Shown: in pieces, positions 11,185 to 60,515 of the stretch
Layout of the letters: each line of letters starts with the position of its first letter
Numbering within the stretch: the first letter of the stretch is position 1
From: an uncultured delta proteobacterium
Lineage (GTDB): Bacteria > Desulfobacterota > Binatia > UBA9968
Length of the DNA: 64,000 nt
NCBI GenBank assembly: GCA_963760795.1
Contig: CAVXEP010000011.1
Location: forward strand, 1 to 64,000
Direction: 5' to 3'
The notes under the pieces: model-generated
What the model was told of the DNA's origin: nothing
Database searches by the model: none
Seen by the model: the letters and a program-made list of their open reading frames with translations, nothing else
Made by a program: the position numbers and the translations under genes

Positions 11185-11282
11185 GTTCAAATCGTTCAAA
11201 TGTTCAAGCCGTTCAAATCGTTTGGGGAGACCGGATTCGTTCAAGGTTCAAGGGTTCAAAAGTTCAAGGTTTTCGGATCGGA
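11185..11282. repeat. Two GTTCAA-repeat arms, the second ending in TTCGGA-TCGGA
   Basis: Eight GTTCAA copies in two blocks of four. Confidence 0.85.
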
Positions 11283-11289
11283 GAGTGCG

Positions 11290-12358
11290 ATGAAAGTTCT
11301 ATGCCAAGGTTGTCGCCTGGTCGCTGGTGGTGGTTTCGCTTCATTCGACAGTCGCCGCGGAGACTTTGGAGCAGTTGATTGCGGGGGCTAAGAAGGAGCC
11401 GGAGCTGACCTTTATTGCCGGGGCGCAGACTTTTGGCGGGCAGAAGACTTTGAATATCCTTGAGGCGGCGTTCAACAAACGCTTTGGTCTCAATATGAAG
11501 ATCCGTTTTGCCGCGGGGCCGGAGATGAATTCGATGGCGGCGCGGGTGATCACCGAATTGAAAAACGGCAGCAAGGCCTCCAGTGATATTTATCATGGCT
11601 CGCAGTCGCATGTGTCGCTGTTGCACAAAGAGAAGGTGTTGGAGCAGGTAAATTATTCCGGGATCTTTCCGTGGATCACCAAGCCGATGGAGATTTTTCC
11701 CAATGAGGGCGTGCTGATTTTTACTTCGCTGCGCGGCATGATTTACAACTCAAAATTGATCCCGAAGGATAAAGCGCCGAAAACCTACGAAGACCTGGTG
11801 GATCCGAAGCTGAGCCCGGCCTGGGCGGGTAAGATGGCGATCCCGCCCTATGTATCTTGGCTCGTCGAGCTGTCGATGATCTGGAGCGAAGACAAGGTCA
11901 AGAACTTCACCAAGAAGCTCGTCGCTCTCAGTGGCGGCCGGCTGCGCTATAGCGAAGAGGAACGTGTCGTTAGTGGCGAATTCCCCATCGCCGCGAACAT
12001 GGGCGGGGCAACGGAACAGATGTGGCAGTGGCAAGCCAAGGGCGCGCCGCTGGTGGCGGTGATGGGTTCGACGCCGGTGCTGCCGTCCTATTTTCAACTG
12101 GCGGTGCCGAAAAATTCCGTCCATCCGAATTTGGCCAAGCTCTTCGTCGGTTTTATGGCCTCGAAAGAAGCCCAAGCCATTCTCGAAAAAAATGATTTCC
12201 GCACGTCGCACCTGGTCGAGGGCACGATGATGTCGAACTATTTGAAGCAAAATAAGATCAAGTTGCAGGAAGCCAAGGATTCGATCAACTTCTATCTGCA
12301 AGGCGAGGATAGCGGTCTGGAGTTCAAAGAAGAACTGACGAAGATGCTGAAACAGTAG
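11290..12358 (+). CDS. ABC substrate-binding protein (Fe/thiamine-like family) 1; apparent extra A at ~11293
   Basis: ORF 11327-12358. Removing one A from ATGAAAGTTC gives the signal peptide MKFYAKVVAWSLVVVSLHSTVAA. Paralog of the 13706 and 18027 genes. Confidence 0.85.
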
Positions 12359-12368
12359 AAGAGAGGGT

Positions 12369-12433
12369 TGGAGTAGTTGAGTCGTGGAGTGATGGGTCTC
12401 GGATTCCCAACTCTCCAGTACTCCATTACTCCA
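12369..12433. repeat. Inverted TGGAGT/ACTCCA arms around CTCGGA-TTCCCAA
   Basis: TGGAGTAGTTGAGTCGTGGAGTGATGG ... TCCAGTACTCCATTACTCCA. Confidence 0.8.
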
Positions 12434-12463
12434 TTGAGTGCATCCATCAACGGAGAGCTGATT

Positions 12464-13591
12464 ATGTTGACTCAAGAAGAAAACGAACTCATGACCCGCG
12501 TCGGTCCCGGTAAGCCCGCCGGGGAGATGCTGCGGCGTTACTGGTGGCCGGTGGCGTTTACCGATCAAGTGCAAGCTAAAGCGGCGCCAACCAAGGTGAC
12601 GTTGCTGGGCGAAGACTTTGTGCTGTTTCGCGACGGCGGCGGCAAGTTGGGATTGGTGGCGTTGCACTGTTCCCATCGCGGCACGTCGTTGGAGTACGGC
12701 CGGGTCGAAGAGCACGGCATTCGCTGCTGCTATCATGGCTGGCTGTGGGATGCGCGCGGCAATTGCCTGGACCAACCGGCGGAGCCGGCCGACAGCACTT
12801 TCAAAGAGCGGGTCAAGCATCCGGCTTTTCATGCGCAGGATGCCGGCGGCTTGATCTTCGCCTATATCGGCCCAGAGCCGGCACCGCTCTTGCCGCCCTA
12901 TGATTTGCTATTGCGCGACGATGGCTGCCGAGTGGTCGGCGGCGGCGAGGAGTTTTGCAATTGGCTGCAACGGGCGGAGAATTCCGCCGACGGTACGCAC
13001 TCCATCGCGCTCCATGCCGCCGGCTATCCCAACATGGCGATGAAGCGGCCGACGATCAAATGGGAGCCGACGCCATTCGGCATCAAAGAGACCACTCTGG
13101 TTGACGGCGTGGCGAAGCCGCGCATATCGCATTTCATTTTTCCCTCCCATATCCGCCATTCCGCGGCGCGCATTGACGAGCTGCCGCGTCAGGTGATCCG
13201 CTTTCGCGTGCCCAAGGACGACTACACGACCAATACTTTCTATATCGACTTCTACCCGCACAAAGACGGCCAGCCGACGCGGCCCGAGCCGCTGCATGTC
13301 GAAGGCTTTTGCAAGAGCGAGCCGGGTGTGTACACGCGGGTGCAAGACGGTTGGTGGAATCTGCCAAATCACGAGCAGGATCGGGTGGCGCAGGAAACTC
13401 AAGGCGTGATCGCCGACCGCACCAAGGAGCATCTGGCGAGCTCCGACCAGGGGATTCTCATGCTGCGTAAGATGATCCGCGACTCGATTGACGCGGTAGC
13501 CCAGGGCAAAGATCCCTTCGGTGTGATGCGTAGCGCCGACGGTCAGATTACCTTCGACGCCAGTCGCGATGCGGTGGAGGCGTTGTCTTGA
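12464..13591 (+). CDS. Rieske oxygenase alpha subunit 2
   Basis: MLTQEENELMTRVGPG, HCSHRG...CCYHGW, ENSADGTHSIALH, QDRVAQ; GGAG RBS. Confidence 0.92.
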   Translation: MLTQEENELMTRVGPGKPAGEMLRRYWWPVAFTDQVQAKAAPTKVTLLGEDFVLFRDGGGKLGLVALHCSHRGTSLEYGRVEEHGIRCCYHGWLWDARGNCLDQPAEPADSTFKERVKHPAFHAQDAGGLIFAYIGPEPAPLLPPYDLLLRDDGCRVVGGGEEFCNWLQRAENSADGTHSIALHAAGYPNMAMKRPTIKWEPTPFGIKETTLVDGVAKPRISHFIFPSHIRHSAARIDELPRQVIRFRVPKDDYTTNTFYIDFYPHKDGQPTRPEPLHVEGFCKSEPGVYTRVQDGWWNLPNHEQDRVAQETQGVIADRTKEHLASSDQGILMLRKMIRDSIDAVAQGKDPFGVMRSADGQITFDASRDAVEALS

Positions 13592-13599
13592 AATTGCGG

Positions 13600-13675
13600 T
13601 CGAGGATCGATGAGGGAGGATCGAGGATGGCTATCCGATTCTTTCGCGATTTTCCATCCTCTATCCTCGACCTCG
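13600..13675. repeat. Inverted GAGGAT/ATCCTC heptamer arms with internal TCCGA
   Basis: CGAGGATCGATGAGGGAGGATCGAGGATGG ... CCATCCTCTATCCTCGACCTCG; same family at 23651-23755. Confidence 0.8.
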
Positions 13676-13705
13676 CATCGTTATAACTTAAAAGGAGTAA
13701 TCGCA

Positions 13706-14749
13706 GTGCTGAAACTCATACTTGCTGTATTGGTACTTTTGCCACAGCTCGCGCAGGCGCAGAAACTCGAACAGATCGTCGCCGAGGCGAAAAAAGAAGG
13801 CGAACTCACCCTGGTGGCGAGCGCGTCGACGTTCGGCGGCAAAAAGGGTTTTGCCGAGCTCGAAGCGCTGTTCGCCAAACGTTTTGGCTTTAAGGCAAAG
13901 TTGAACTTGAGTGGCGGGCCGAGCTTTCCGCAGATGGCCGCGCGGATCATCACCGAGCAAAAGGCCGGTACCAAGGCGTCCACGGATATTTATCTCGGCT
14001 CGGACGGCACCTACGTCACCATGCACCAGGAGAAGGCGCTGGAACGGGTCAATTGGTCCGGGACTTTTCCATGGGTGACCAAAGCGATGGAGATTTTTCC
14101 CCAAGAGTCGGTGCTGGTTTACTCCTCGTTTCACGGCATCATCTACAACTCCAACGCCATTCCCAAAGACAAAGCGCCGAAGAGTTATGACGATCTGATC
14201 GATCCGGCGCTATCGCCAACCTGGGCCGGTAAGATGGCGGTGCCGGCGTATATTCATTGGTTGATCCGGGTATCGCCGATGTGGGGCAAAGAAAAAGTTC
14301 TCAACTTCGCGCGTAAACTCGCGCCGCTCATCGGCGGCCGCCTGCGCCAGGGCGAAGAAGAGCGCATTGTCAGCGGCGAATTCCCGATCATGGCGAGCAC
14401 CGGCGGCCCCCTCGAGGCGATGTGGAAGTGGCAACCCAAAGGCGCGCCGCTGGTCGGCTTGCCGGGATCGTCACCGGCGAGCTGTTCCTATTATCAGCTA
14501 GGTGTGCCGAAGAATTCAGTTCATCCGAATATGGCTAAACTGTTCGCCGCGTTCATGAGCACCCGCGAAGCACAGAGCGTGTTGGAGAAACAGGATTACC
14601 GCAGTTCACATTTGGTCGACGGCACTTTGATGACGAAATACGTCAAGGACAACAAAATCAAGATGCAAGATCCCAAGGAATTGAACGAAGTATTTCAAAA
14701 GGAAGATGCCGGTCTCGAAGAAGAGCTGACGAGAATATTGTTGAAGTGA
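13706..14749 (+). CDS. ABC substrate-binding protein 2
   Basis: AAGGAG then GTG 13706; signal peptide; shares TFGG, WAGKMA and SGEFPI with its paralogs. Confidence 0.88.
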   Translation: MLKLILAVLVLLPQLAQAQKLEQIVAEAKKEGELTLVASASTFGGKKGFAELEALFAKRFGFKAKLNLSGGPSFPQMAARIITEQKAGTKASTDIYLGSDGTYVTMHQEKALERVNWSGTFPWVTKAMEIFPQESVLVYSSFHGIIYNSNAIPKDKAPKSYDDLIDPALSPTWAGKMAVPAYIHWLIRVSPMWGKEKVLNFARKLAPLIGGRLRQGEEERIVSGEFPIMASTGGPLEAMWKWQPKGAPLVGLPGSSPASCSYYQLGVPKNSVHPNMAKLFAAFMSTREAQSVLEKQDYRSSHLVDGTLMTKYVKDNKIKMQDPKELNEVFQKEDAGLEEELTRILLK

Positions 14750-14761
14750 TTCGAAATTAAA

Positions 14762-14924
14762 CTGGATTCCGTTTTCGCGGGAAAAACGGAAAAGAGCAAG
14801 GCGACTGCGAGTCGACGCAACAAAATCCCTTGGCTTGTCGCTGAGGTCGTTAATCCGTCATACCGGCGCACACCGGTATCCATCCGGTCTCGAAATCTAG
14901 CTTCCGGTCTTCATCGGAATGACG
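14762..14924. repeat. GTCA/TGAC-type REP-like palindromes
   Basis: CTGGATTCCGTTTTCGCGGGAAAAACG; CGTCATACCGGCGCACACCGGTATCCA; degenerate ...TCGGAATGACG. Confidence 0.7.
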
Positions 14925-14969
14925 GAATAATTTCCTGAGCCGAAGAACCAGCGAAAGATTAGAGTCTCC

Positions 14970-16712
14970 ATGTCCACTCAAGTCATCATGCCCGAGCCGC
15001 GCGGCTCGAATATCAATTGGTCGCAGTTGTCGCTGGTGGCGGTCGCCGGCGTCGCGGCGATTTCCATTCTGGTCCTGCTCGGCATGATCATCTGGATGAG
15101 TCTGCGCACCGGCGTGCCGGGGCAGCCATCGGACTATTCGCTTAAGAACTATGTGACGATCCTCGCCGACCCGTACACCTACAAGGTGATGTGGACGACT
15201 TTGTATTTTTCCGCCGTGACGATTGCCGTGGCGGTGCCGTTGGGATTTATCTTCGCCTGGCTGGTCGAGCGCACCGACATGCCGTACAAAGCGCTGGCGA
15301 TGAGTCTGCTCAGTATCGGCATTCTGTTTCCGACCTTTCTCAAAGCCATGGGCTGGGTATTTTTGCTTCACCCGCGCATCGGCGTGATCAATATATTTCT
15401 CATGCAGCTGTTCGGTCTCAGCACCGCACCGCTCAACATCGCGACCTTGACCGGCATCGGCTGGGTGCAAGGACTGACCCTGACGCCGCTGGCTTACGTG
15501 ATGATTTCCGCCGCGCTCAAGAGCATGAACCCGTCGTTGGTCGAGGCGGCGAGCGTCCATGGTGTCAGCCAATGGCGCACACTGGTGCGCATCGAGCTGC
15601 CGCTGATCTGGCCGGCGCTGTTCTCGGCGGTGATCTGGATGTTCACCGTGGCGATCGCCGCCTTCGACGTGCCGGGCGTGATCGGCATGGCCAATAATAT
15701 TTTTACCTTCAGCACGGCGATCTACTTCATGATCAATCCCAACGAAGGCTTGCCGCGCTACGGGTTGAGCGGCGCCTACGGCACGATCATGGTCGGGTTG
15801 TCGCTGATCATGATGATCCCGTATTTCATCGCCCTCAAGCAGAGCCACAAGTATCAAATCATTTCCGGCAAGGCCTATCAGCCGCGGCCGGTGGAGTTGG
15901 GCCGCTGGCGCTGGTCGGCGTGGGCACTCTTGGGACTTTATTTCACTTTGGCGTTTGTCCTGCCGCTGTTGGCGATCTTCTGGGTGTCGCTCTTGCCCTA
16001 CGTGCAAGCGCCGTCTTGGCAAGCGCTGTCGTCGCTCACTTTCGAGCGCTACAGCGCGGCGGCCTTCGACAGGGCGATCTTGGATGCGGCATTGAACACT
16101 ATTCTCTTGATGGTCGCGGTGCCGACTTTGATCGTGCTGATCTGCGCGGCGGTTTCGTGGATCGTCACGCGCTCGAAATTTCGCTGGCGGGTGGCCTTGG
16201 ACGCCGTCGCGTTTCTACCGCATCCGGTGCCCAACCTGCTCTTTGCTCTGGCGATCGCCTACTTGGCATTGCTGGTGTCCAACGTCGTGCCGCTGTACGG
16301 AACTATCTTTGTCATCATGGTGGTCTATATCGTCTGCTGGATCAGTTTCGGCACCCGGGTGTTGAACAACAGCATGATCCAAGTGCATCGCGAGTTGGAA
16401 GAAGCGGCACAAGTCGGCGGCGTGTCGTCGTTCAAGATTCTCGCCAGAATCATCGTGCCGCTGATCAAGCCGGGGCTGGTTTACACCTGGATCTGGACCT
16501 CGCTGTCGGCGTACCGCGAGCTGACCATGGCGGTATTTCTGTCATCGCCCAAGAGCCAGGTGCTGTCGACCTACATCTGGGGACAGTGGCATGGCGGTGG
16601 GCTGGGTGATGCGGCGGCGATCGCGATCATGATGATCGTGGTGATGTCGCCGGTGGTGACGAGCTTTTGGATCTACGCGCGCAAGCAGCAGCAGGTGGCG
16701 GGATCGGCGTGA
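14970..16712 (+). CDS. Fused two-domain ABC permease (FbpB/ThiP-like)
   Basis: 580 aa, hydrophobic, two EAA loops (LVEAASVHG, LEEAAQVGG). Confidence 0.92.
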   Translation: MSTQVIMPEPRGSNINWSQLSLVAVAGVAAISILVLLGMIIWMSLRTGVPGQPSDYSLKNYVTILADPYTYKVMWTTLYFSAVTIAVAVPLGFIFAWLVERTDMPYKALAMSLLSIGILFPTFLKAMGWVFLLHPRIGVINIFLMQLFGLSTAPLNIATLTGIGWVQGLTLTPLAYVMISAALKSMNPSLVEAASVHGVSQWRTLVRIELPLIWPALFSAVIWMFTVAIAAFDVPGVIGMANNIFTFSTAIYFMINPNEGLPRYGLSGAYGTIMVGLSLIMMIPYFIALKQSHKYQIISGKAYQPRPVELGRWRWSAWALLGLYFTLAFVLPLLAIFWVSLLPYVQAPSWQALSSLTFERYSAAAFDRAILDAALNTILLMVAVPTLIVLICAAVSWIVTRSKFRWRVALDAVAFLPHPVPNLLFALAIAYLALLVSNVVPLYGTIFVIMVVYIVCWISFGTRVLNNSMIQVHRELEEAAQVGGVSSFKILARIIVPLIKPGLVYTWIWTSLSAYRELTMAVFLSSPKSQVLSTYIWGQWHGGGLGDAAAIAIMMIVVMSPVVTSFWIYARKQQQVAGSA

Positions 16713-16858
16713 TTCGGAAGGATATTAGCCGCAAAGAACGCAAAGAACACAAAGGAAGAAATCGAAATATTTCCCGCTAAGACGCAAAGGCGTCAAAGGA
16801 GATGACGCACGTCAAACTCCGAGACTTTGCGCCTTTGCGGGAGGTCATCCGAATCCGA
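16713..16858. repeat. Composite CGCAAAG-family arms bounded by TTCGGA and TCCGAA-TCCGA
   Basis: TTCGGA, AGCCGCAAAGAACGCAAAGAACACAAAG, CCCGCTAAGACGCAAAG, TCCGA, CTTTGCGCCTTTGCGGG, TCCGAATCCGA. Confidence 0.8.
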
Positions 16859-16905
16859 GCACAGGGTGATGAACATGACAGCTGGACAGCGAAATTGTCG
16901 CCGAA

Positions 16906-18024
16906 ATGGATTTCGTCCACACCGGGCCGAGCACTGTGGCGGGAAAATATTTGCGGCGCTTTTGGCAGCCGGTGTTCGTGTCGGCGCAATTGCAAACCGG
17001 CTGTGCCGTGCCGATTCGCATCATGGGCGAGGATTTTACGCTTTATCGCGGCGCCAGCGGGGCGGCGTATGTGGTGGATTTTCGCTGCGCCCATCGCGGC
17101 ACGCAACTGTCGGTGGGCTGGGTCGAGCAGGAATGTATTCGCTGCTTTTACCATGGCTGGAAATATGACGGCACCGGACAATGTGTCGAGCAGCCGGCGG
17201 AGGACGAGAGCTTCGCCAAGAAGGTAACTATACGCAGTTGTCCGACCCATGAATTTCTCGGGCTGATCTTTGCCTACTTCGGCGAAGGCGCCGCGCCGCC
17301 GTTTCCTGACTATCCCGAGTTGAAAGCAGAAGGCGAGATCGATGTCGGCAGTTACATTCGCCACTGCAATTATTTCGGCACGCTGGAGAATGGCATCGAT
17401 CAAGTGCATGTGCCGTTCACCCACGCTAAATCGGGCTTCACCAAGTTCGGCCTCAACTGGGATATCCCGACCATCACCGCAGAGGAAACCGACTATGGCA
17501 TCGCCATGTACGGGACGCGTAAGGACGGCAAGGCGCGCATCAATCACTACCTCATGCCCAACATCCTCTACATCAAAGGCTCGCCGGAGAGCGCGCGGGA
17601 AGGTTGGCGCGAAGCGTTTGCCTGGCGCGTCCCGGTGGACGATACCAGCCACCGCAGTTTCAACATCGCTCTGATTCACGTCACGGGAGAGGCGGCGGAG
17701 CGATTCCGTGAGCGCCAACGGCGCCAAGAGGAAGTCGTCGCGAATCTGCCGTCAGCGAACGAGATGGCAGCGCGGGTATTGGCGGGAAGGATCAGCGTGC
17801 ACGATATCGAGGAGCGGCCCGATATTGTCAACATCCAGGATCATGTCGCCCAGGAAGGGCAGGGCGCGATTGCCGATCGCGTCAATGAACGGCTGGGACG
17901 GTCGGATGTGGCGGTGATTCTCCTGCGGCAAGTCTGGCAACGCGAGCTGGCGGCGTTGGCCGCGGGTGAGCCGATGAAACAGTGGCGCCGGCCGGAGAAA
18001 CTCGTTGCTACCAGCGGGGTTTAA
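16906..18024 (+). CDS. Rieske oxygenase alpha subunit 3
   Basis: RCAHRG...CFYHGW, ENGIDQVHVPFTH, QDHVAQ. Confidence 0.92.
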   Translation: MDFVHTGPSTVAGKYLRRFWQPVFVSAQLQTGCAVPIRIMGEDFTLYRGASGAAYVVDFRCAHRGTQLSVGWVEQECIRCFYHGWKYDGTGQCVEQPAEDESFAKKVTIRSCPTHEFLGLIFAYFGEGAAPPFPDYPELKAEGEIDVGSYIRHCNYFGTLENGIDQVHVPFTHAKSGFTKFGLNWDIPTITAEETDYGIAMYGTRKDGKARINHYLMPNILYIKGSPESAREGWREAFAWRVPVDDTSHRSFNIALIHVTGEAAERFRERQRRQEEVVANLPSANEMAARVLAGRISVHDIEERPDIVNIQDHVAQEGQGAIADRVNERLGRSDVAVILLRQVWQRELAALAAGEPMKQWRRPEKLVATSGV

Positions 18025-18026
18025 GA

Positions 18027-19097
18027 ATGCGAACAAGAATTCGATCAATTTGGCTCGCTGCGCTGTTAACGGTTGGCCCAAGGTTCGATACCGCGAGCGC
18101 ACAGAACGTGGATCAATTGATCGCCGCGGCCAAGAGCGAGAAGGAGTTGTCGTTCATCGCCGGACCGACGACCTTTGGCGGCAAGAAGGGGCTTGCCGAG
18201 ATCGAGGCCGCATTCGCCAAGCGCTTCGGTTTCGACGCCAAGATTCGCTTCGCCGCCGGGCCGGAGATGAACGCCATGGCGGCGCGGGTGATCAGCGAGT
18301 TCAAAGCCGGCGGCAAGGCGACCACTGATATCTATCTCGGCTCCCTCGGCCAGTTCGCCAATCTGGCGCGGGAAAACGCCTTGGAAGAGTTCAATTGGTC
18401 GGGAACGTTTCCCTGGATCGCCCACCCCATGGAAGAGACGGTTTCCCGGCGCGGCGTTTTGGTTTATTCATCGCCGCGCGGCATCATCTACAATTCCAAT
18501 CTGATTCCAGCGGACAAGGCGCCGAAGAGTTATGAAGATTTGATCGATCCGAAGCTGAGCCCGACTTGGGCCGGCAAGATCGCCGTGCCGCCCTATCCCA
18601 ATTGGTTGGTCGAGCTGTCGCTCATCTGGGGCGAGGAGAAGCTCAAGGATTTCACTCGTAAGCTGGTGGCGATCAACGGCGGCTGGCTGCGTTACGGCGA
18701 GGAGGAGCGGGTGTTGAGCGGCGAGTTCCCAATCATGGCGAACATCGGCGACTCGCTGGCGACTCAGTGGAAGTGGCAGGCCAAAGGCGCACCGCTGGTC
18801 GCCGTGCTCGGTTCCACTCCCGGCGATACTTCTTATTTCCATCTCGGCGTGCCGAAAAATTCCGGCCATCCCAATCTCGCCAAACTGTTCGCCGCCTTCA
18901 TGATTTCCAAGGAGGGCCAGGCGATTATCGAGAAGCATGAGTTCCGCTCGTCCCATCTGGTCGAGAGCTCGCGCATGGCCAGGCATCTGCGCGATCACAA
19001 GATCAAGTTGCAAGAGCCCAAAGACCTGTTCAACTTCTATCTCAAAGGCGGCGGCGCCAAGTTAAACGAAGAGCTGGTCAAGATGTTGAAGCAGTAG
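18027..19097 (+). CDS. ABC substrate-binding protein 3
   Basis: ATG 2 nt after the Rieske stop; signal peptide; close paralog of SBP 1. Confidence 0.88.
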   Translation: MRTRIRSIWLAALLTVGPRFDTASAQNVDQLIAAAKSEKELSFIAGPTTFGGKKGLAEIEAAFAKRFGFDAKIRFAAGPEMNAMAARVISEFKAGGKATTDIYLGSLGQFANLARENALEEFNWSGTFPWIAHPMEETVSRRGVLVYSSPRGIIYNSNLIPADKAPKSYEDLIDPKLSPTWAGKIAVPPYPNWLVELSLIWGEEKLKDFTRKLVAINGGWLRYGEEERVLSGEFPIMANIGDSLATQWKWQAKGAPLVAVLGSTPGDTSYFHLGVPKNSGHPNLAKLFAAFMISKEGQAIIEKHEFRSSHLVESSRMARHLRDHKIKLQEPKDLFNFYLKGGGAKLNEELVKMLKQ

Positions 19098-19121
19098 CAC
19101 AAGGCCAGGAATAGGAATATT

Positions 19122-19189
19122 GGCCGCAAAGAACGCAAAGGTCGCAAAATAAATCCTGTAGCGGCGCAGCATGCTGCGCCCGCTTCCGG
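19122..19189 (+). repeat. GCCGCAAAG arm followed by GTAG-type REP
   Basis: GGCCGCAAAGAACGCAAAG...TAAATCC-TGTAGCGGCGCAGCATGCTGCGCCC. Confidence 0.75.
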
Positions 19190-19255
19190 CGCAATTGAAC
19201 CTCAATATTTGTTTTGCTCTTCATTGATCTCCGCAAATTCCTCCGCTAAGCGAGT

Positions 19256-19981
19256 GTGATGTCTTTTGCTGCGCGATTTCGCCAGGGGATGAAAGCGGCG
19301 ATTCCGATCTGGATCGCTTTCGTGCCTTCCTCTCTCGCCTGGGGGATCGCGGCGCAGGCCCATGGGCTGACGCTTGAAGAGATCGTCCTGATGTCCGCGT
19401 GGGTTTATTCCGGGCCGGCGCAGTTTGCCGTGCTCGTGCCGCTCGCCGAAGGCAAGTCGGCGGCGACGGTGTTGATCGCCGGCTTGCTGATGAATTTGCG
19501 CTTCCTGCCCATGAGCATGGCGCTGGCGCCGTTTTTCCGCGGCGTGAAGCGTTTGCCGCTGATGATCGCTTCCCATGTCGTCAGCGCCAGCAGTTTCATC
19601 GTGCCTTATCTACAATTTCAAAAAGAGCGGGAAGCCAGCGATGGTAAATCAGTCGCCGACGGTTATGGCAACCTCGGTTTCTTCGCCGGCATCGGCGCGA
19701 CGGCTTTCACGGTCTGGGTAGTCGGCACCGCTGCCGGTTATGGTGTCGGGTTGAGTTTTCCGCCGGGTTTCGAAGAAGCGTTGAAATTTATCCTGCCCGG
19801 CTATTTCGCCGGGCTGCTGGTGGCGGAGATGAAAGGCAAAACCATGCCGCTGATCTGTCTGGCGAGCATCGTCACGGCGATCCCCGGCGCGCTGTTCAAT
19901 CTTGGCTGGGGCTGGCTCGCGACATCGGCGCTGATCGCTGTCTTAGGTTGGAGTGTGGAAAAATGGCTTTCACGCGCTTAG
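19256..19981 (+). CDS. azlC: AzlC-family branched-chain amino acid exporter
   Basis: MSAWVYSGPAQF, NLRFLPMS, WVVGTAAG; multi-pass membrane protein. Confidence 0.8.
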   Translation: MMSFAARFRQGMKAAIPIWIAFVPSSLAWGIAAQAHGLTLEEIVLMSAWVYSGPAQFAVLVPLAEGKSAATVLIAGLLMNLRFLPMSMALAPFFRGVKRLPLMIASHVVSASSFIVPYLQFQKEREASDGKSVADGYGNLGFFAGIGATAFTVWVVGTAAGYGVGLSFPPGFEEALKFILPGYFAGLLVAEMKGKTMPLICLASIVTAIPGALFNLGWGWLATSALIAVLGWSVEKWLSRA

Positions 19982-20284: not shown

Positions 20285-20314
20285 CTTTTCAGGTTCAAAG
20301 CGAGGATATTTGTT

Positions 20315-20392
20315 ACCACGAAGACACGAAGGACACGAAGGTTTCGGAAAAATATTATTCCCAACTTCGTGTCTCTTCGTGTCTTCGTGGTG
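20315..20392. repeat. Inverted CACGAAG arms around a TTCGGA-N10-TCCCAA core
   Basis: ACCACGAAGACACGAAGGACACGAAG-GT-TTCGGA-AAAATATTAT-TCCCAA-CTTCGTGTCTCTTCGTGTCTTCGTGGT. Confidence 0.85.
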
Positions 20393-20401
20393 AATGGGAT
20401 T

Positions 20402-21511: not shown

Positions 21512-21586
21512 GTTCGAGCAGGGAACGATGGCGGCGGAGAGGCGATCCCGTCCGAGCGACGATGGTTGCGGGTCGATGAACGTATC

Positions 21587-21982: not shown

Positions 21983-22132
21983 AACCACAAAGGGCACAAA
22001 GCAGGAAGAAATTCGGACGGAAGATTGGCCGCATAGAACGCAAAGTACACAAAAAAGAATCGGGAATTGTCGGGGCGAGTTTTAAACCCGCGCTCTTGCT
22101 TCTTATCTTCGCGTCCTCGTGTCTTCGTGGTG
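21983..22132 (+). repeat. Composite intergenic element (CACAAAG arm, TTCGGA, GCCGC arm, REP, CACGAAG right arm)
   Basis: Same module order as 37660-37781 and 60321-60515. Confidence 0.8.
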
Positions 22133-22229: not shown

Positions 22230-23652
22230 ATGAGCGAAGAAATTTTAAATCAGTTGGCCGCCGACATGAACAAATTGCTCACCGAGCCGGCGGGCAGCCG
22301 CAGGGTCAAGATCACCGACTCTGACGCCGCGCGACGGCCAGCAGTGCAAACTCGCCACGCGCGTCACCACCGACGATCTCTTGCCGCTCTGCGCGTCCAT
22401 TGACAACTGCGGTTTTTACGCCGTCGAAGTCTGGGGCGGCGCGACCTTCGACGTCTGCATGCGTTATTTAAACGAAGATCCGTGGGAACGGCTGCGGCGC
22501 ATCAAAGCCGTCATGCCCAAGACCAAGCTGCAAATGCTTTTGCGCGGCCAACATATACTCGCCTACCGGCCGTACACCGATAAGATCGTCTACAAGTTCG
22601 TCGAGCGCGCGGTGGCCAACGGCATCAATGTGTTTCGCGTGTTCGAGGCGACCAACGACTTTCGCAACATCGAGACGGCGACCAAGGCGGTCAAAGAGTT
22701 CGGCGGTGAAGCTCATGTGGAAGTAAATTACACCGTCAGCCCGGTGCACACGCTGGAAAAATGGCTGGAGTATGCCGAGCAGTTGATCGACGTCGGCGCC
22801 GATTGGCTGTCGCTCAAAGATGCCACCGGAATCCTGACGCCGTTCAACGCCTATCGAATCATCAAGGGCATCAAGGACCGGTCCAAGGGCAAATTGCCGG
22901 TGTTGCTGCATTGCCACGACATGGGCGGGACGTCGAGCATGTGCCATCTGATGGCGGTGCTCGCCGGCGTTGACATGATCGACACGGTGCTGTCGCCGTT
23001 GTCGTTCGGTTCCGCGCACCCGGCCACCGAGACCATGGTTGCGTCCTTGGCCGGCACGCCGTTCGATACCGGCATCGATTTGAAAATTCTCGAAGAGCCG
23101 TCGTTGATCACGCGTCAGATCAAAGAGAAATACGAAAAATACGAGACCGGTTACACCGGCGTCAGCGCCGAAGTATTCATCCACAAAGTTCCGGGCGGCA
23201 TGATCTCCAACATGGTGGCGCAGCTGAAGGAAGCCAAGCGCATGGACTTGATGGACGCAGCGTTGAAAGAAACCCCGAGTGTGGAAAAAGATTTGGGCCA
23301 TCCGCCGCTGCTGACGCCGACCAGCCAGATCGTCGGCGTGCAGGCGGTGCTCAACGTCCTCACTGGCGAGCGCTACAAGATCGTGACAAAAGAGACCCAA
23401 GACTATGTGAAGGGTAAATACGGCCGGCCGCCAGGCACGGTGAGTCCGGATTTGATCAAGAAAATCATGAAGGACAAACAGCCCGACTACTCGATCCGCT
23501 CGGGCGAAATGGCCGATCCAGCGGATTGGGACAAGGCGATCGAAGCTCTCGGGCCGCTGGCAAAGGGCGAAGAGGATTTGCTCTTGGGCGTGCTGTTCCC
23601 GATGCAGGCGAAGGAGTTTTTGACCAAGCGAGAAAACGGAATACAGAATTAG
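22230..23652 (+). CDS. Stand-alone carboxyltransferase (pyruvate carboxylase B / oxaloacetate decarboxylase alpha / transcarboxylase 5S-like), no biotinyl domain; frameshift at ~22320
   Basis: ITD|LTPRDGQQCKLATR, EVWGGATFD, EDPWERL, LHCHD, VPGGMISN, LTPTSQIVG; GAGGAG RBS. Confidence 0.87.
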
Positions 23653-23755
23653 CCGCATAGAACTCAATGAAAGTCGAGGATGGATGATCGAGGATAGAGG
23701 ATAGATAATCAACGCGTAGGTTCTCTTGTCCATTCTCCATCCTCTATCATCGACC
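23651..23755. repeat. GCCGC arm remnant plus inverted GAGGAT/ATCCTC arms
   Basis: CGAGGATGGATGATCGAGGATAGAGGATAG ... CCATCCTCTATCATCGACC. Confidence 0.75.
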
Positions 23756-27207: not shown

Positions 27208-27313
27208 GTTCAAGGGTTCAAGGTTCAAAGGTTCAACGTCAGAGGCTCGCTGCCACAAAATGACTACGCTCTGTTGTTGTCCGATTGAACCTTGAACTTT
27301 CGAACCTTTGAAC
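27208..27313. repeat. Inverted GTTCAA/TTGAAC arms with TCAGA...TCCGA inner boundaries
   Basis: Four GTTCAA on the left and four TTGAAC-like units on the right. Confidence 0.85.
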
Positions 27314-28464: not shown

Positions 28465-28500
28465 AGGTGACTCCTTAGTTAGTCGATCAAATTTCTATCT

Positions 28501-28578
28501 CACCACGAAGGCACGAAGGACACGAAGGGTTCGGATAGATATTATTCCGAACTTCGCGCTCTTCGTGCCTTCATGGTG
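28501..28578. repeat. Inverted CACGAAG arms around a TTCGGA-N10-TCCGAA core
   Basis: CACCACGAAGGCACGAAGGACACGAAG-GG-TTCGGA-TAGATATTAT-TCCGAA-CTTCGCGCTCTTCGTGCCTTCATGGTG. Confidence 0.88.
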
Positions 28579-28593
28579 AAAGATGTCTTCACA

Positions 28594-29232: not shown

Positions 29233-29374
29233 TTCTCGTCTTAGCTCCTCTTGGCGCTGGTAGTCAATTCAATTCGCTGCACTCTAGCGCGGCTTGTGGT
29301 TTCGGTCCAGTTGTCTAAATGTGTTCACCACAACAGGTGAAGCTACCCCTGAAGAGAATCGGCGCCCGAGAATT

Positions 29375-29469
29375 AGCCGCAAAGAACGCAAAATTCGCAA
29401 ACGGGTTGAGTATGAAATTATTGGAATTGTGGCCTTTGCGTTCATTGCGGCCAACCCTTCGAATCCGAA
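29375..29469. repeat. Inverted GCCGCAAAG arms followed by TTCGAA-TCCGAA
   Basis: AGCCGCAAAGAACGCAAAA ... CTTTGCGTTCATTGCGGCC. Confidence 0.8.
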
Positions 29470-29483
29470 TCTATTTCTGACAG

Positions 29484-30253: not shown

Positions 30254-30315
30254 TTGGAACATTTGGCACGATTTGAACGTCTGGAAGCTATTCCATTTGA
30301 TTCCAAATGATTCAA
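30254..30315. repeat. Degenerate TTGAAC/GTTCAA-family arms
   Basis: TTGGAACATTTGGCACGATTTGAACGTCTGGAA ... TTCCA/TTCAA. Confidence 0.5.
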
Positions 30316-30364
30316 GGTGCCAATCGATCCAGGATCTTGCTGAACACGACTATCGCCGTGCGAG

Positions 30365-37645: not shown

Positions 37646-37659
37646 CGGAAAAGGGTTTT

Positions 37660-37781
37660 ACCACAAAGCGAGAATTTCGGATTCGAAATGTTAGCCGCAA
37701 AGATCGCAATACACGCTAACAATATTTCAGAAACGTCGGAGCGGGGTTGATACCCGCGCTCTTATCTTTGTGTCCGTCGTG
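37660..37781 (+). repeat. Composite intergenic element homologous to 21983-22132
   Basis: ACCACAAAG, TTCGGATTCGAA, AGCCGCAAAG arm, TTCAGA, GTCGGAGCGGGGTTGATACCCGCGCT, CTTTGTGTCC. Confidence 0.75.
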
Positions 37782-38647: not shown

Positions 38648-38698
38648 TTCGGCGGTTCAAAACGTTCCAATCGTTCAAGCCGTTCAAAACCTTTCGGA
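38648..38698. repeat. GTTCAA arm ending in TTCGGA
   Basis: GTTCAAAACGTTCCAATCGTTCAAGCCGTTCAAAACCTTTCGGA. Confidence 0.75.
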
Positions 38699-50338: not shown

Positions 50339-50361
50339 CTACTCCTCGCTGCGCTCGTCGC

Positions 50362-50500
50362 ATTCCAATGTTCCAGTTGTTCCAAACGTTTAAGGTGTCG
50401 GAATTGAACGACTTGGAACAGCCAATCGAACATTTTAGCGCTAGATTCTCGTCGGAATGATTTGAATTCTGGAATCTGTAACTGGAACATTTGGAATCGG
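50362..50500. repeat. GTTCCA/TGGAAC arms with two TCGGA linkers
   Basis: Left arm, TCGGA 50398, right arm, TCGGA 50452, second right arm. Confidence 0.7.
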
Positions 50501-50510
50501 CGATCCTTTA

Positions 50511-52518: not shown

Positions 52519-52760
52519 TCCGATTCGAAGACATATTCCTCACGCAAGGCGCAAAGGCGCCAAGTGACGGGCCGAGGCCCGTCATCCCGAGTGGATGCGA
52601 GGGATCTAAGAAAGATTTCTCCCTTCGGTCGAAATGACATTTTTCCTCTACGGCCTTTGCGGCCTTGGCGCCTTTGCGGGAGATATTCCGACCGCATTGA
52701 ATTTTTTTTGCGAACTTTGCGTGGCCAGTTCCTTCGCTCCGCTCAGGATCTTTGCGGCTA
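52519..52760. repeat. Nested composite of CGCAAAG arms, GTCAT/ATGAC REP pair and CTTCG..GCTCAGG hairpin
   Basis: Outer arms at 52540 and 52655-52682, inner pair 52581-52638, TCCGA at 52519 and 52687. Confidence 0.8.
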
Positions 52761-54038: not shown

Positions 54039-55023
54039 ATGAACAGAAGAACCGCCATCCGGCGACTGGCGACTTTTTTTCTGACTACTGCTTCTCTCGC
54101 CGAGGCGCAGCAGGCGGGGAAAATCTTCCGCATCGGTTTCCTCGATGGAGGCACTGCTGCCGGTATGGCGAGCCTCGTGAAGGCGTTCCTGCAAGAGCTG
54201 AGCAAGCTTGGTTGGATTGAGGGAAAGAATTTCACTATCGAGTACCGATTTACGGAGGGCAAAGGCCAGAGCGCCGGCCTGAGCTTGCGGCGGACCTGGT
54301 TCGTCTTAAGGTTGATCTGATCTTGGTCTCGTCGCGACCGGCGGCATTGGCGGCCAAGAGCGCCACTCGCTACGATCCCGATCGTAATGACGAATGTTGG
54401 GGACCCCGTGGGTGCAGGTTTGGTTGCCAGTCTGGCGCGGCCGGGAGGCAATGTCACCGGGTTCTCGAGTTTATCGCACGGAACTAAACACAAAAAGGCT
54501 AGAGATACTCAAGGACGCGGTCCCCAAGCTCGCCCGAGTCGGCCTTCTGCGGTCGGCGGGCACAGGACAATTCCAAATGAAAGAGATCAGGCCTGCGGCT
54601 CTGCACCTGAAGCTAAAATTGGAGGAGATCGAGACTCAATCCGACGCCAAAGGTTTAGAGAGCGCCTTTAAAACCGCCAAGCAGAAGCAGGTGGGCGCGA
54701 TTATGACGATGACCACTCCCGCCTTTTTCGCCGAACGAAAGCGGATCGTCGAGCTTGCCGTCAAATACCGCTTGCCGGCTATTTACTATCAGAAGGAGTT
54801 TGTCGATGAGGGCGGTCTCATGTCCTATGGGGCGGATTACGATGATCTGTTCCGCAAGGCTGCCCACTACGTAGACAAGATCCTCAAGGGAACGAAACCT
54901 GCCGATCTGCCGGTACAGCAGGCGACGAAGTTTGAATTCGTCATTAACCTCAAGGCGGCAAAACAAATTGGTCTTACGATTCCACTCGGAATGCTGGAGC
55001 GGGCGAATCAGGTGATTAAATGA
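54039..55023 (+). pseudogene. COG2984-type ABC substrate-binding protein with three frameshifts (pseudogene or sequence error)
   Basis: LGWIEGKNFTIEYR, LVASLARPGGNVTG, GGLMSYG, KPADLPVQQATKFE; shifts near 54265, 54367 and 54477. Confidence 0.75.
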
Positions 55024-55161
55024 ATTTTAGATTTTGGATTTTCGTCCGCGGGGCGGCATTTGGATTAAGGGAGTGCCGGTTCGTAAACTCGGCAATTTAT
55101 GCCAGATTGAATCCGATTCCGAGTCCCGACAATCCAAAATCGACAATCCAAAATCCAAAAT
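55024..55161. repeat. Inverted ATTTTGG/CCAAAAT heptamer arms with stacked TCCGA
   Basis: ATTTTAGATTTTGGATTTT ... TCCGATTCCGAGTCCCGA-C-AATCCAAAATCGACAATCCAAAATCCAAAAT. Confidence 0.8.
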
Positions 55162-55286
55162 GCAGTGGCGGCGTATGGACATCGGCTAGAGCTTGCGATA
55201 TGCGGGGCGAGACGTTGTCTTGACCCGCGAACTTTGGCGCGCGGCGAATCGCGCCGCGCAACCGCAGGGACAAAGGGAGGTGCGCG

Positions 55287-56294: not shown

Positions 56295-56549
56295 CGGTAA
56301 GAGGTAAGGGGTAAGGAGTGAGGGGTTCGGAGTAAGAAAAGATTCTTCTGAAAAACCCCTAGGAATGCTTCGACGGGCTCAGCATGAACGGAAAACCTCC
56401 AGTGATTTTAACCGATCTTCCGTTCTTCCTTCGTCAAGCTCAGGACGGGCTCTGAGGCTCGTCGAAGGATGAACGGAGGGTTTTTCAGCAGAATCAGAAA
56501 AAATGACCGATACGATTTGAACGGCTGGAACGACTTGAACGTTTTGAAC
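56291..56549. repeat. Mismatched arms: GTAAGGG/GTGAGGG left arm and TTGAAC right arm around a MITE
   Basis: GTGACGGTAAGAGGTAAGGGGTAAGGAGTGAGGGG-TTCGGA ... CCGA...TTGAAC-like x4. Confidence 0.75.
56341..56495. mobile_element. MITE-like element with 18-bp terminal inverted repeats and candidate AGAAAA target duplication
   Basis: GATTCTTCTGAAAAACCC / GGGTTTTTCAGCAGAATC (17/18 match); AGAAAA on both sides; internal REP-like hairpins. Confidence 0.75.
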
Positions 56550-58381: not shown

Positions 58382-58504
58382 TCGGAAGTATTCACCACGA
58401 AGGACACGAAGATCACGAAGGAAAGACTATCTAGCCGCAAAGAACGCAGATGGCGCAAAGAAACTATAGGTAAATCCTGTAGGGGCAACCCCCTGTGGTC
58501 GCCC
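58382..58504 (+). repeat. TCGGA, CACGAAG arm, GCCGCAAAG arm, GTAG REP
   Basis: Ends TAAATCC-TGTAGGGGCAACCCCCTGTGGTCGCCC; same TAAATCCTGTAG junction as at ~19150. Confidence 0.8.
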
Positions 58505-58546
58505 TCTTCGAAAGGCTTGCGGCGTCAGGGATGCACCGACGGCGAA

Positions 58547-59504: not shown

Positions 59505-59652
59505 ATCGACTCCTTTAGACGGTGCCGAATGTGTACCACAAGACACAGTGCGCGGCATAGCCGCGATCAAGGAAGTGAAGATGAGAACTGAACAACCCGC
59601 GGCTCTAAGCCGAGGGGTTCTGAAATTGTCGACTCGAAGTCGACTTTCCTTT

Positions 59653-59809
59653 CGTCATTCCGGCCTAATCGTCACCCCGGTGAAAACCGGGGTCCATCCC
59701 CATCCCGTTAACCTGGATACCGTTTTCCAACGGTATGACTGACTCCGCAAGAAACGCAAAGAATTAAATAAAGAAATGAGATTCGTAGGTGTGGGTTTGA
59801 AACCCGCCC
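59653..59809. repeat. GTCA-type REP doublet, then CGCAAAG arm and GTAG REP
   Basis: CGTCACCCCGGTGAAAACCGGGGTCCA; CTGGATACCGTTTTCCAACGGTATGAC; GTAGGTGTGGGTTTGAAACCCGCCC. Confidence 0.8.
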
Positions 59810-59815
59810 TTTTGC

Positions 59816-59845
59816 TTGACCGGTCGTTAACCGCGCTGTTAGTGT
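59816..59845 (+). promoter_or_regulatory. Candidate sigma70 promoter for the cupin gene
   Basis: TTGACC-N18-TAGTGT with a TGn extension. Confidence 0.3.
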
Positions 59846-59882
59846 TCGCCACACAGCTCGAATTCCGGAAGGAGAAAGTTCT

Positions 59883-60311
59883 ATGGCAGACGCGCATATT
59901 CTGAGAATCGATTCGTTGCCGGTGGTCGACCGCGGTAACGGCATCCAAACGACTCCCTTGGTCACGAAAGAGCTCGGCTCCAAGCATATCACGACGGGGA
60001 TTACTCGATTTCCGGTGGGCGCGAAGGTTCCCATGCATTCGCATAACTGCGATGAGCAGGTGACCATCCTCGAAGGGGAGGCCGACGCGGAAATCGACGG
60101 CCAGAGCCATCGGCGGCTGCACGCTTACGACACGACGCTGGTTCCAGCCAATCAGCCGCACCGTTTCGTCAACGTCGGCACGACGCCGCTGGCGATTCTA
60201 TGGATCTATACTTCCACCGAGGTGACCCGCACCTTCGCCGAAACCGGCGAGACGGTGGCGCATCTGTCCGAGCGTGATCTGGTGAGTCCGCTTGCTCCTA
60301 AGGGAAAGTAA
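59883..60311 (+). CDS. Cupin-domain protein
   Basis: HSHNCDEQVTILEG...PANQPHRF; AAGGAG RBS. Confidence 0.88.
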   Translation: MADAHILRIDSLPVVDRGNGIQTTPLVTKELGSKHITTGITRFPVGAKVPMHSHNCDEQVTILEGEADAEIDGQSHRRLHAYDTTLVPANQPHRFVNVGTTPLAILWIYTSTEVTRTFAETGETVAHLSERDLVSPLAPKGK

Positions 60312-60320
60312 AGATTTATT

Positions 60321-60515
60321 CAACACGAAGGTCCCAGCTCGGAGAAGAGAATTAACCACAAAGGGCACAAGGGTCACATAGAAAGAAGATTCGGATTCGG
60401 AGGGTTACCGCAAAGCGCGCAAAAAAGAATTTGGATATACAAGGGGCGGGTTTGAATTTGTTTCGAGTTTCGTGCTTCGAATTTCGGATTTATTTCGCCG
60501 GCTGCTTGGCGCGAG
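60321..60515 (+). repeat. Composite intergenic element with four TCGGA-like linkers
   Basis: CACGAAG, CTCGGA, AACCACAAAG arm, TTCGGATTCGGA, ACCGCAAAG, TTTGGA, truncated REP, TTCG-heptamer arm. Confidence 0.78.

Follow-up and report, generated by a model that had tools for sequence, protein, structure and literature searches.

Why should repeats that share no sequence end in the same few letters? The question is raised by the first 64 kb of contig C11 in genome bin G000 (hereafter the window, meaning that whole stretch), whose genes are ordinary ones for solute-binding proteins, Rieske oxygenases, transporters and others. The gaps between them hold short tandem arrays of several families, which we call arms, often bounded by TTCGGA or its complement TCCGAA, which we call the tag. 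An original prediction, made from the letters of this stretch, took the tag for a common target or crossover site of an enzyme acting in trans on the repeat modules. Our preferred reading, held with moderate confidence, is that the arms are the terminal inverted repeats of hairpin cassettes found genus-wide, and that the copies in the window are a gene-less form, resembling repetitive extragenic palindromes (REPs) or MITEs (miniature transposable elements with inverted repeats), of cassettes of the intervening sequence (IVS) type. The elements have a regular anatomy and a fixed orientation rule, their arms are specific to the cargo gene enclosed, they sit just past stop codons and they persist at orthologous sites; they change by slippage of whole units and by concerted change of units, and are occasionally replaced or nested.

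Genomes and repeat detection

Bin G000 has 6.58 Mb in 35 contigs, with a G+C content of 0.57, an estimated completeness of 89% and an estimated contamination of 6%. The nearest titled records, reached through one of its proteins, are metagenome-assembled genomes (MAGs) named 'uncultured delta proteobacterium' or 'Candidatus Binatia bacterium', and the public runs that contain the stretch are mostly soil metagenomes. The four public runs examined were seen as assembled contigs only, in which RNA starts, ends and levels are unreadable and uncovered parts are uninformative.

Genome-wide, arms were taken to be the 929 merged Tandem Repeats Finder (TRF) arrays with a period of 7–10 and a unit G+C of at most 0.6, and were paired by gapped arm-to-arm alignment. 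A gapless genome-wide hairpin finder was dropped as too insensitive, arms lying one unit out of register; it gave 334 merged hairpins with many elements split. Gene-context figures rest on crude longest-open-reading-frame (longest-ORF) gene calls and on gaps of at least 50 nt. Loci of the unpublished genome G004 were excluded from the flank analyses of both kinds of cargo gene and from the conserved-site count given below.

An oriented tag beside the arms

All 21 coordinates at which the tag had been reported carry TCGGA or TCCGA, at that place or 1 nt off, and the eight arm families that had been named are all present in the window. The original count of over 20 arm-bearing gaps was about right: at the thresholds used TRF finds 24 arrays in the window, two of them in coding sequence (24853 and 25647) and 22 in 16 gaps, and five further gaps with arms were seen by eye (22000, 29352, 37652, 50355 and 52550).

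Counted over the 64-kb window as a whole the motif is not enriched, its 76 TCGGA and 56 TCCGA being close to the estimate from base composition. Its placement is another matter. Eight window tags adjoin an arm with the orientation arm>TCGGA or TCCGA>arm, whereas random placement, tried 2000 times, averages 0.47 and never exceeds 4, and TCGGA ranks first of all 1024 5-mers beside the window arms. For the 929 arms of the genome, with no orienting by composition, arm>TCGGA was counted 95 times and TCCGA>arm 86 times, the reverse orders 13 and 12 times; about 7 are expected in each class (the TCGGA background is 0.0078 per random 12-nt window), an enrichment of about 13-fold. In all, 181 of 929 arms are tagged in the one fixed order arm-TCGGA ... 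TCCGA-arm', versus 25 in the reverse order. The positional enrichment that the original prediction implied is thus found in the window and in the genome. With arrays set purine-rich strand up, TCGGA is the commonest 5-mer within 25 nt downstream (n = 197), peaking at +0 to +2 past the array (n = 115), and TCCGA peaks 16–17 nt further on.

No fewer than six arm families show the tag. The tagged fraction is 68/115 for CACGAAG, 7/19 for GGATTTT, 56/211 for GTTCAA, 3/18 for GTAAGG, 10/64 for GTTCCA, 6/45 for CGCAAAG and 11/110 for GGAGT; the values for GAGGAT (2/26) and ATTCCA (2/24) are near the significance limit. At eight of the sites originally reported the tag is not at an inner boundary and lies instead 6–17 nt outside a CGCAAAG/CACGAAG-type arm (16713, 16848, 29464, 37676, 52687, 58382, 60338 and 60390).

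Pairs of TCGGA and TCCGA bracketing up to 800 nt show no excess past about 60 nt anywhere in the genome. A 'naked' core, TCGGA-N-TCCGA lacking arms, was also considered and is not abundant; the only excess is at spacing 10 (TCGGA-N10-TCCGA, 50 occurrences versus about 5 in control orders), and this is the CACGAAG family. The tag is unlikely to be a free small element.

Anatomy and folding

In this genus an arm module runs from an outer cap (TTCACC and TTRGCC are examples) through tandem units of 7–9 nt, numbering three to five, to an inner T(T)CGGA. The caps are specific to the family and complementary across the element (TTCACC..GGTGAA, TTRGCC..GGCYAA). Two facing modules give arm-TCGGA-loop-TCCGA-arm', and because they face each other the tag pairs as the top 5–8 bp of a stem of 25–40 bp. 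Neighbouring arms no more than 150 nt apart form 118 inverted pairs and 2 direct ones. Ten window stretches were folded, of which eight are far stabler than their shuffles (-31 to -52 kcal/mol, z -3.2 to -11.7, equalled by 0 of 200 shuffles); the direct GTTCAA modules at 11183–11285 form no hairpin (z +1.55 against shuffles).

The CACGAAG family is the most uniform, a palindrome of about 75 nt with the consensus CACGAAG-(G)TT-TCGGA-(about 10 A+T-rich nt)-TCCGA-A(AC)-CTTCGTG. A pattern search allowing up to 45 nt between arms found 143 copies, most commonly with 24 nt between the arms. Among 101 of these hairpins both tags are exact in 38, a single mismatch is present in 22 and the tags of 33 more are further decayed.

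Rfam, at gathering thresholds, gave no match in the window. A simple scan for intrinsic terminators over 11000–30999 gave 31 sites, with 23.6 expected, and none of them is an arm hairpin.

Each cargo lineage has its own arms

According to the original prediction, arms of this sort stand beside GxxExxY, four-helix-bundle and GIY-YIG genes in other places, and no such gene is here. The latter is true of the window and untrue of the genome. GxxExxY and four-helix-bundle genes do stand between short-period arms in G000, whereas the palindromes flanking its small GIY-YIG genes are of another, non-short-period kind. One GxxExxY gene (C7:2141–2500), together with a near-identical copy on C23, lies between CACGAAG arms and another (C4:254560–255006) between GCCGCAAAGAACGCAAAG arms. 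The four-helix-bundle gene at C32:416180–416593, here IVP_a, has GTTCAA arms with TCGGA and TCCGA at their inner boundaries; those at C31:40487–40876, from C25:182751 on and at C31:29960–30397 have GAGGAT, GGGGTAAGG and TGGAGTGAT arms, respectively. In NCBIfam the four-helix-bundle cargo is TIGR02436 and the GxxExxY cargo TIGR04256; the Pfam families are PF05635 ('23S rRNA IVS protein') and PF13366 (PD-(D/E)XK). The two CACGAAG-flanked copies belong to longer near-identical stretches (C7:650–4000 and C23:34692–37521) that include the flanking genes, and these may reflect two strains in the bin or a recent duplication.

We compared the flanks of 29 PF05635 loci from 17 genus members, clustering the proteins at 55% identity or above. 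No arm family is shared by any of the 345 protein pairs below 55% identity. One cluster has GTTCAA/GTTCCA arms at 8 of 9 loci and another AGGCAWT or AGGC..GAG arms at 6 of 6, and further clusters have GTRAGG, CGTGxTCGTG or ATTCCA arms. The 22 PF13366 loci divide in the same manner, their clusters having CACGAAG-like arms at 11/12 loci, CTCTCGCAAAGG at 5/5 and GCCGCAAAG/ACCACAAAG at 4/4. Each cargo protein lineage has its own arm family. The tag stands at the inner boundary in 12 of the 29 four-helix cassettes and in none of the 22 GxxExxY cassettes.

The pairing of cargo and arms extends far beyond the genus. Homologues of the IVP_a protein with 50–95% identity come from MAGs whose titles name Acidobacteriota, Verrucomicrobiota, Nitrospirota, Planctomycetota, Chloroflexota, Omnitrophota and other phyla. 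An inverted match scoring at least 12 flanks the gene at 55 of 69 loci, and most of the flanks that were read by eye consist of tandem units of 6–9 nt of the GTTYNNR kind. Since cargo-specific arms flank homologues in so many phyla, the architecture is old and widespread. In a class-wide search centred on genome G034, PF05635 was found in 52 of 301 genomes, a tally that includes the unpublished G176. The GxxExxY protein has no solved-structure relative at an E-value of 0.01.

Two further observations concern four-helix-bundle loci. At least 10 PF05635 matches lie within 23 kb at G018:C13:1773837–1796930, as a cluster rather than as single cassettes. Just 3' of the IVP_a cassette (about 1950–2250 of that locus; G007:C36 150–430) is a gene that, from the DNA read by eye, has the look of a HigA-type antitoxin; in G007 this candidate directly follows the upstream gene.

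The tag is younger than the arms

The tag itself has a narrow distribution. It stands at the inner boundary in 9 of the 69 IVP_a-homologue loci, and six of these belong to records with delta proteobacterium, Deltaproteobacteria or Binatia in their titles; the other three are, by our own arithmetic, about what chance would give. Samples of 80–200 kb from G003, G013 and G018 hold 12–37 arms per 100 kb, beside which TCGGA ranks first or nearly first among the 5-mers. It does not rank so beside the arms of two genomes from other families of the order (G019 and G020), one of which has 9.8 arms per 100 kb but no tag, while the other is G+C-rich and has few arms. Tagging with TCGGA is a trait of the genus. 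The arm families predate it, which makes it unlikely that all arms descend from a single tagged ancestor. Three readings of the tag remain: a site read by some factor, an apical clamp, or a motif that spread among the elements by conversion.

Position, persistence and turnover

Arms are present in 16.6% of tandem, 14.4% of convergent and 8.4% of divergent gaps. Where the gap is tandem, the median distance from the upstream stop codon to the beginning of the first arm is 24 nt, and 166 of 397 first arms begin within 20 nt of that codon.

The closest relative is G003 (90% identity, 24.6 kb of synteny). Over the 24.6 kb aligned, no whole element has been gained or lost between it and G000. Fourteen indels of 6 nt or more were listed; most of the intergenic ones are of 7–13 nt inside arms or loops, often one repeat unit, while one of 20 nt deletes most of an arm and three fall in coding sequence. 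Units also change in concert, as at 11185, where the whole array has gone from GTTCAA to GTTCCA. Identity per site is 0.911 in coding sequence, 0.836 in arms, 0.883 at tag positions and 0.798 in loops, and 8 of 12 tags are intact in G003. The search for gain and loss breakpoints that had been proposed with the original prediction therefore met no whole-element event in this comparison, only changes that are mostly unit-sized and within arms or loops.

More distant members of the genus differ more, with different arm families at the same orthologous gap and with nesting. Here the claims that modules stack and nest hold good: in the gap at 21998 a CGCAAAG arm and a REP-like palindrome stand right after TTCGGA inside a CACGAAG hairpin that is clean in G013, and the same orthologous gap can carry different families in different species (Table 1).

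Whole cassettes also persist. At the IVP_a locus a match spanning the cargo gene is found at the same site, with the same upstream gene, in eight genus members besides G000 and the unpublished G004. In G007 the two flanking genes are joined by only TTCAAAACGAACTATTGAA, equal to one unit-like half per side, and there is no tag. This comparison of G000 with G007 is the only mappable presence or absence of a whole cassette, and its breaks are at the outer ends of the arms, the empty site having no TCGGA. The expectation that indels between relatives break at the tag is thus borne out in one nested insertion, which starts right after TCGGA, and contradicted by the whole-cassette indel.

Nor did the suggested HUH enzymes prove to be connected with the arms. 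Two intact-looking Y1/HUH genes (among three PF01797 hits) have terminal inverted repeats (TIRs) of their own, 33 and 22 nt long and about 965 nt apart, and no short-period arms. No enzyme acting at the tag was found. What stands of the shared linker is that it is real, oriented and common to arm families of different cargo lineages; the enzyme supposed to use it was not tied to it.

The summed depth in soil runs is far higher at arm stretches than in their surroundings because repeats from many organisms contribute to it. Contigs of the public runs tend to break at repeats.

What the elements may be

If the arms are the ends of IVS-type cassettes, the elements would be transcribed with the upstream gene and would fold into long double-stranded RNA stems similar to the IVS stems that RNase III cuts. 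Such stems might serve as processing sites or as protection of the 3' end. New copies would arise rarely, perhaps aided by proteins of the cargo genes able to recognise the periodic units. The tag would then be the conserved inner end of the module, either a place of cleavage or joining or only an apical clamp.

Several results weigh against this reading. The tag, absent from all 22 GxxExxY cassettes, is commonest in the gene-less CACGAAG hairpins, so that the gene-less copies are not simple deletion derivatives; CACGAAG arms seem to hold either the gene or the 20-nt TCGGA..TCCGA filling. Neither of the cargo proteins is known to be a transposase, and the only empty site read, that of G007, shows no target-site duplication. 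The evidence of transcription is one contig of an RNA library over 11030–11448, for which DNA carry-over is possible. Stem mismatches have no excess of sense-strand wobble (64 versus 58), hence no sequence sign of selection on RNA pairing over DNA palindromy, and compensatory change of the tag pair is rare, with 2 cases against 6 non-compensatory double changes in the 101 CACGAAG hairpins. The tag is conserved only modestly above the arms (0.883 against 0.836 identity to G003), and direct modules, which form no hairpin, are kept in several species.

The strongest alternative is the original model, broadened: TCGGA/TCCGA would be the target, cleavage or crossover site of an enzyme that acts in trans and adds, nests and swaps modules and loop contents, comparable to integron attC sites or to HUH enzymes such as the REP-associated tyrosine transposases (RAYTs). 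We regard it as possible but unproven, and on balance rather doubtful. A strict orientation rule across families of different cargo lineages, and a genus-specific tag on arms that are far older, would be natural for a site read by an enzyme, but no enzyme emerged as a candidate, and each of the Y1/HUH genes checked stands between TIRs of its own. The nested CGCAAAG element begins directly after the TTCGGA at 22012, in a hairpin that is clean in G013, and TTCGGA ... TCCGAA encloses CGCAAAG elements from outside (16713–16852, 29464); in short loops, however, any insertion would be near a tag anyway, the whole-cassette indel that could be mapped has its breaks at the outer ends of the arms, and G003 differs by no whole-element gain or loss, its intergenic indels being mostly unit-sized within arms or loops. 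Exchange at the tag would also account for the stacked solo arm-TCGGA modules (60325–60490), for the direct modules kept in several species and for gene versus 20-nt TCGGA-N10-TCCGA filling as alternative CACGAAG contents, yet TCGGA..TCCGA pairs are not in excess past 60 nt and there is no abundant free-standing core element. The 8 of 12 tags intact in G003 exceed the 4–5 or so that we calculate from per-site identity of loops and arms; even so this conservation is modest, and the tag decays much like any repeat.

A second alternative, which we consider improbable, makes the elements immobile hairpins in the service of the host: slippage-prone units arising in place at the 3' ends of genes and kept as stabilisers of RNA or as terminators, the tag being only a G+C clamp maintained by convergent selection or gene conversion. 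Persistence at orthologous gaps and closeness to stop codons agree with it, but the elements fall into discrete families with shared caps (143 CACGAAG hairpins), and sister species have different families in the same gap. The stability of the hairpins, the unit size of the indels and the depletion of arms in divergent gaps also speak for it. Against it, the simple scan shows no hairpin with an intrinsic terminator's T-run, wobble mismatches show no bias to the sense strand, and arm families vary together with the cargo genes from genome to genome and from phylum to phylum. There are a few compensatory variants of the tag, although one exact 5-mer is unlikely to result from clamp selection alone.

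Chance, or an artefact of assembly or binning, to which the 6% estimated contamination, the 35 contigs and the breaking of public-run contigs at repeats might point, has practically no probability left and is already refuted by the roughly 13-fold enrichment with strict orientation, by the same elements at orthologous places in independent genomes and by the much higher summed soil-run depth of arm stretches relative to their surroundings.

The cassette reading can be carried further, to a proposal that we put forward as a long shot. There would be a cross-phylum class of hairpin cassettes whose periodic units are read, each cassette's by its own small cargo protein, either an Avd-like four-helix-bundle protein or a GxxExxY PD-(D/E)XK nuclease, and in this genus TTCGGA/TCCGAA would be the point of cleavage or strand exchange at which loop contents (gene, 20-nt filling or cassette) are exchanged, with no known recombinase. 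Such a system, if real, would amount to dispersed cassette exchange.

Apart from this long shot, the results suggest that two very common unexplained small protein families, the four-helix-bundle '23S rRNA IVS protein' and GxxExxY, and the old puzzle of inverted intergenic heptamer-type repeats are parts of one architecture, with periodic arms particular to each cargo lineage. If so, the proteins would gain a testable substrate in their own arms, and the origin of many REP-like hairpins at gene ends would be explained. The factor that makes or reads the elements might be traced through the TCGGA tag, which is specific to the genus and shared by arms that are otherwise unrelated.

Comparison with known elements

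Similar intergenic heptamers are the short tandemly repeated repetitive (STRR) sequences of cyanobacteria. The closest published repeats are the GGGAATC heptamers of Xanthomonas and Nostoc, which passages of Rehm et al. 2015 (PMC4692102) describe as intergenic tandem units of about 7 nt near an ORF, often in pairs on opposite strands able to form stem-loops. The arms of G000 agree with them in period (929 arrays of period 7–10), in pairing (118 inverted versus 2 direct pairs), in standing near the end of the upstream ORF and in keeping their position between relatives while length and sequence vary. They differ in having many unit families per genome, a shared inner TCGGA tag with outer caps, and arms that enclose small genes. 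The best solved-structure match of the IVP_a protein is 2gsc, XCC0516 of Xanthomonas campestris, which hints that the published heptamers and the four-helix cargo may belong together; in the passages of PMC4692102 concerned we found no mention of XCC0516, 'helix bundle' or S23. Direct TAACTGA heptamers of Beggiatoaceae, Cyanobacteria and Bacteroidetes are likewise, in passages of MacGregor 2015 (PMC4679880), abundant in intergenic regions, patchy across phyla and of no known mechanism, but stand just upstream of start codons, whereas the arms here are mostly inverted pairs just past stop codons.

In passages of Warrier et al. 2016 (PMC4990558), the S23p ORF lies within a 28-bp IVS stem that RNase III cuts. 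As in such 23S rRNA IVSs, PF05635 ORFs of G000 outside the window are flanked by terminal inverted repeats of some 25–30 bp (last rows of Table 1). Unlike the rRNA IVSs, these cassettes follow protein-coding genes, their arms are made of tandem units, most copies are gene-less and a second, unrelated cargo (GxxExxY) exists. The bin's own 23S gene (C30:201148–204150) is a full model match containing no arm-type tandem array.

REPINs, hairpins formed by REP pairs, were reportedly shown by Bertels and Rainey in 2011 to be mobilised by RAYTs. GTAG- and CGTC-tagged REPs and their bacterial interspersed mosaic elements (BIMEs) are treated in the passages of Di Nocera et al. 2013 (PMC3733652). Like tagged REPs, the elements here are high-copy extragenic palindromes lying mostly 3' of genes, with different stems and a short shared tag, with mosaic stacking and with several types per genome. 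In REPs mobilised by RAYTs, however, the GTAG (CGTC) tag is unpaired at the foot, while TCGGA/TCCGA of the short-period arms is paired at the inner, loop end of longer, periodic stems, and the two Y1 genes of G000 examined are not flanked by short-period arms.

MITEs are non-autonomous derivatives of TIR transposons. The gene-less copies here, like MITEs, have terminal inverted repeats in common with copies that bear genes and are rarer, and they too can be nested. Between genus members elements are present, absent or replaced. The cargo genes are, by contrast, not known transposases, no target-site duplication is evident at the single empty site read, and the gene-less CACGAAG copies have the TCGGA-N10-TCCGA filling, which is lacking in the gene-bearing ones. 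Integron attC sites are imperfect hairpins of variable sequence with short conserved core sites that bracket small gene cassettes, and the present elements resemble them in these respects. They are unlike integrons in that the cassettes are dispersed singly at gene ends rather than set in arrays; an integrase or attI was neither sought nor seen.

The elements are a variant of REP, heptamer-repeat and IVS-like elements. The arm–cargo link and the tag were not found in print, in that no paper came to light that ties short-period arms to TIGR02436/TIGR04256 genes or describes the TCGGA tag in searches confined to one collection of papers without their supplements, of which the repeat-neighbour tables of Rehm 2015 may be relevant here.

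Elements and other features of the window

Table 1. Arm-bearing elements of the window, with cassettes of the IVS kind elsewhere in G000 (z relative to shuffles; empty cells, nothing reported)
Position	Element	Tag and fold	Relatives
11185..11277	two GTTCAA arrays in direct order; not a hairpin	first followed by degenerate CCGGA, second by TTCGGA at 11272	two modules in G003 and G013, a single module in G018
12369..12435	TGGAGT-family hairpin between two cistrons	TCGGA 12399 at stem top; -33.2 kcal/mol, z -3.8	GGATGAAG arms in G002 and G013 (gap 12359/12369)
13598..13672	GAGGAT-family hairpin	TCCGA at 13634; z -3.2	orthologues in relatives
16713..16852	composite: TTCGGA directly past stop codon, CGCAAAG left arm, CGCAAAGG hairpin	TCCGA at 16818 in CGCAAAGG hairpin; outer TCCGAATCCGA at 16848; inner hairpin 16770–16842, z -4.9	
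19120..19185	solo CGCAAAG arm, then GTAG-type REP palindrome		
20315..20391	CACGAAG-family hairpin	TTCGGA 20343, right tag decayed to TCCCAA; -52 kcal/mol, z -11.7	retained by G003 and G013
21985..22131	nested composite; outer CACAAAG/CTTCGTG arms	TTCGGA 22012, directly followed by CGCAAAG arm and REP-like palindrome	clean CACGAAG hairpin in G013, GTTCCA hairpin in G018 (gap 21998)
23650..23753	decayed CGCAAAG arm, then GAGGAT hairpin	z -3.8	
27208..27313	GTTCAAGG hairpin with 48-nt loop	TCCGA 27280 touching right arm; z -6.4	GTTCCA arms in G013, GTTCAAAAC arms and REP in G018; three GTTCAA-kind variants overall (gap 27200/27208)
28500..28579	CACGAAG hairpin with both tags	TTCGGA 28530 and TCCGAA 28546, 10 nt between; z -9.4	orthologues in relatives
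29352..29475	CGCAAAG hairpin	TCCGA 29464 outside right arm; z -3.7	CACGAAG hairpin in G013, no element in G018 (gap 29233)
30270..30345	TGGAAC/GTTCCA-type hairpin	no tag	
37652..37704	CACAAAG arm remnant, then start of CGCAAAG arm	TTCGGA 37676 between them	
38655..38698	GTTCAAAAC array	followed by TTCGGA 38693	
50355..50503	GTTCCA/ATTCCA-type arm pair	TCGGA 50398 past inner left units	
52550..52691	CGCAAAGG arm pair around GTCA-type REP	TCCGA 52687 outside right arm	
55021..55164	GGATTTT-family hairpin with long loop	TCCGATTCCGA at 55112; weak fold, z -2.5, 4/200 shuffles as good	
56296..56331	GGTAAGG array	followed by TTCGGA 56326	
58382..58505	stack: TCGGA, CACGAAG arm, CGCAAAG arm, GTAG-type REP		
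60325..60490	stack of solo arms CACGAAG, CACAAAG, CGCAAAG, GTTTCGA; no complementary right arms	each followed by TCGGA (60339, 60391, 60397, 60484)	
C32:416108–416638	inverted repeats around PF05635 ORF		
C31:29878–30467	inverted repeats around PF05635 ORF		
C31:40463–40876 and flanks	inverted repeats around PF05635 ORF		
C25:182751 and flanks	inverted repeats around PF05635 ORF		

Some elements accompany gene families. Between 10029 and 19097 paralogues alternate, a solute-binding protein gene and then a Rieske oxygenase gene, and each spacer has a hairpin of a different arm family. In a soil DNA contig of run X1, with flanks at least 90% alike, 34 letters with a GAGTCAGG array take the place of the TGGAGT spacer at 12357–12475. 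Paralogous genes for ABC-type substrate-binding proteins have GGATTTT arms at both ends at 54394–55164 in the window and at C13:239485, C15:122245, C25:175208, C32:27968 and C32:257885 elsewhere in G000; the GGATTTT hairpins seem to have been duplicated along with this gene family.

Palindromes of other kinds are also present. GTAG-type REPs (CCTGTAG..GC-rich stem) stand directly beside CGCAAAG arms at 19150–19185 and about 58470–58505, and a similar one lies within the loop of a CGCAAAG hairpin at C19:89552–89648. REP pairs of the GTCATxCCGG..CCGG type occur at 14866–14935 and about 59690–59740, and a related palindrome, GTCATTTCGA..GAGAAATC, flanks the small GIY-YIG gene at C16:219891–220124. 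A long inverted repeat (GATTCTTCTGAAAAACCC..) surrounds GCTTCGAC..GCTCAG palindromes at 56341–56495, which resemble those flanking the GIY-YIG gene at C7:135454–135804. A 77-nt unit is present in two tandem copies with a 96% match at 34598–34750, in the long gap upstream of the gene at 35372.

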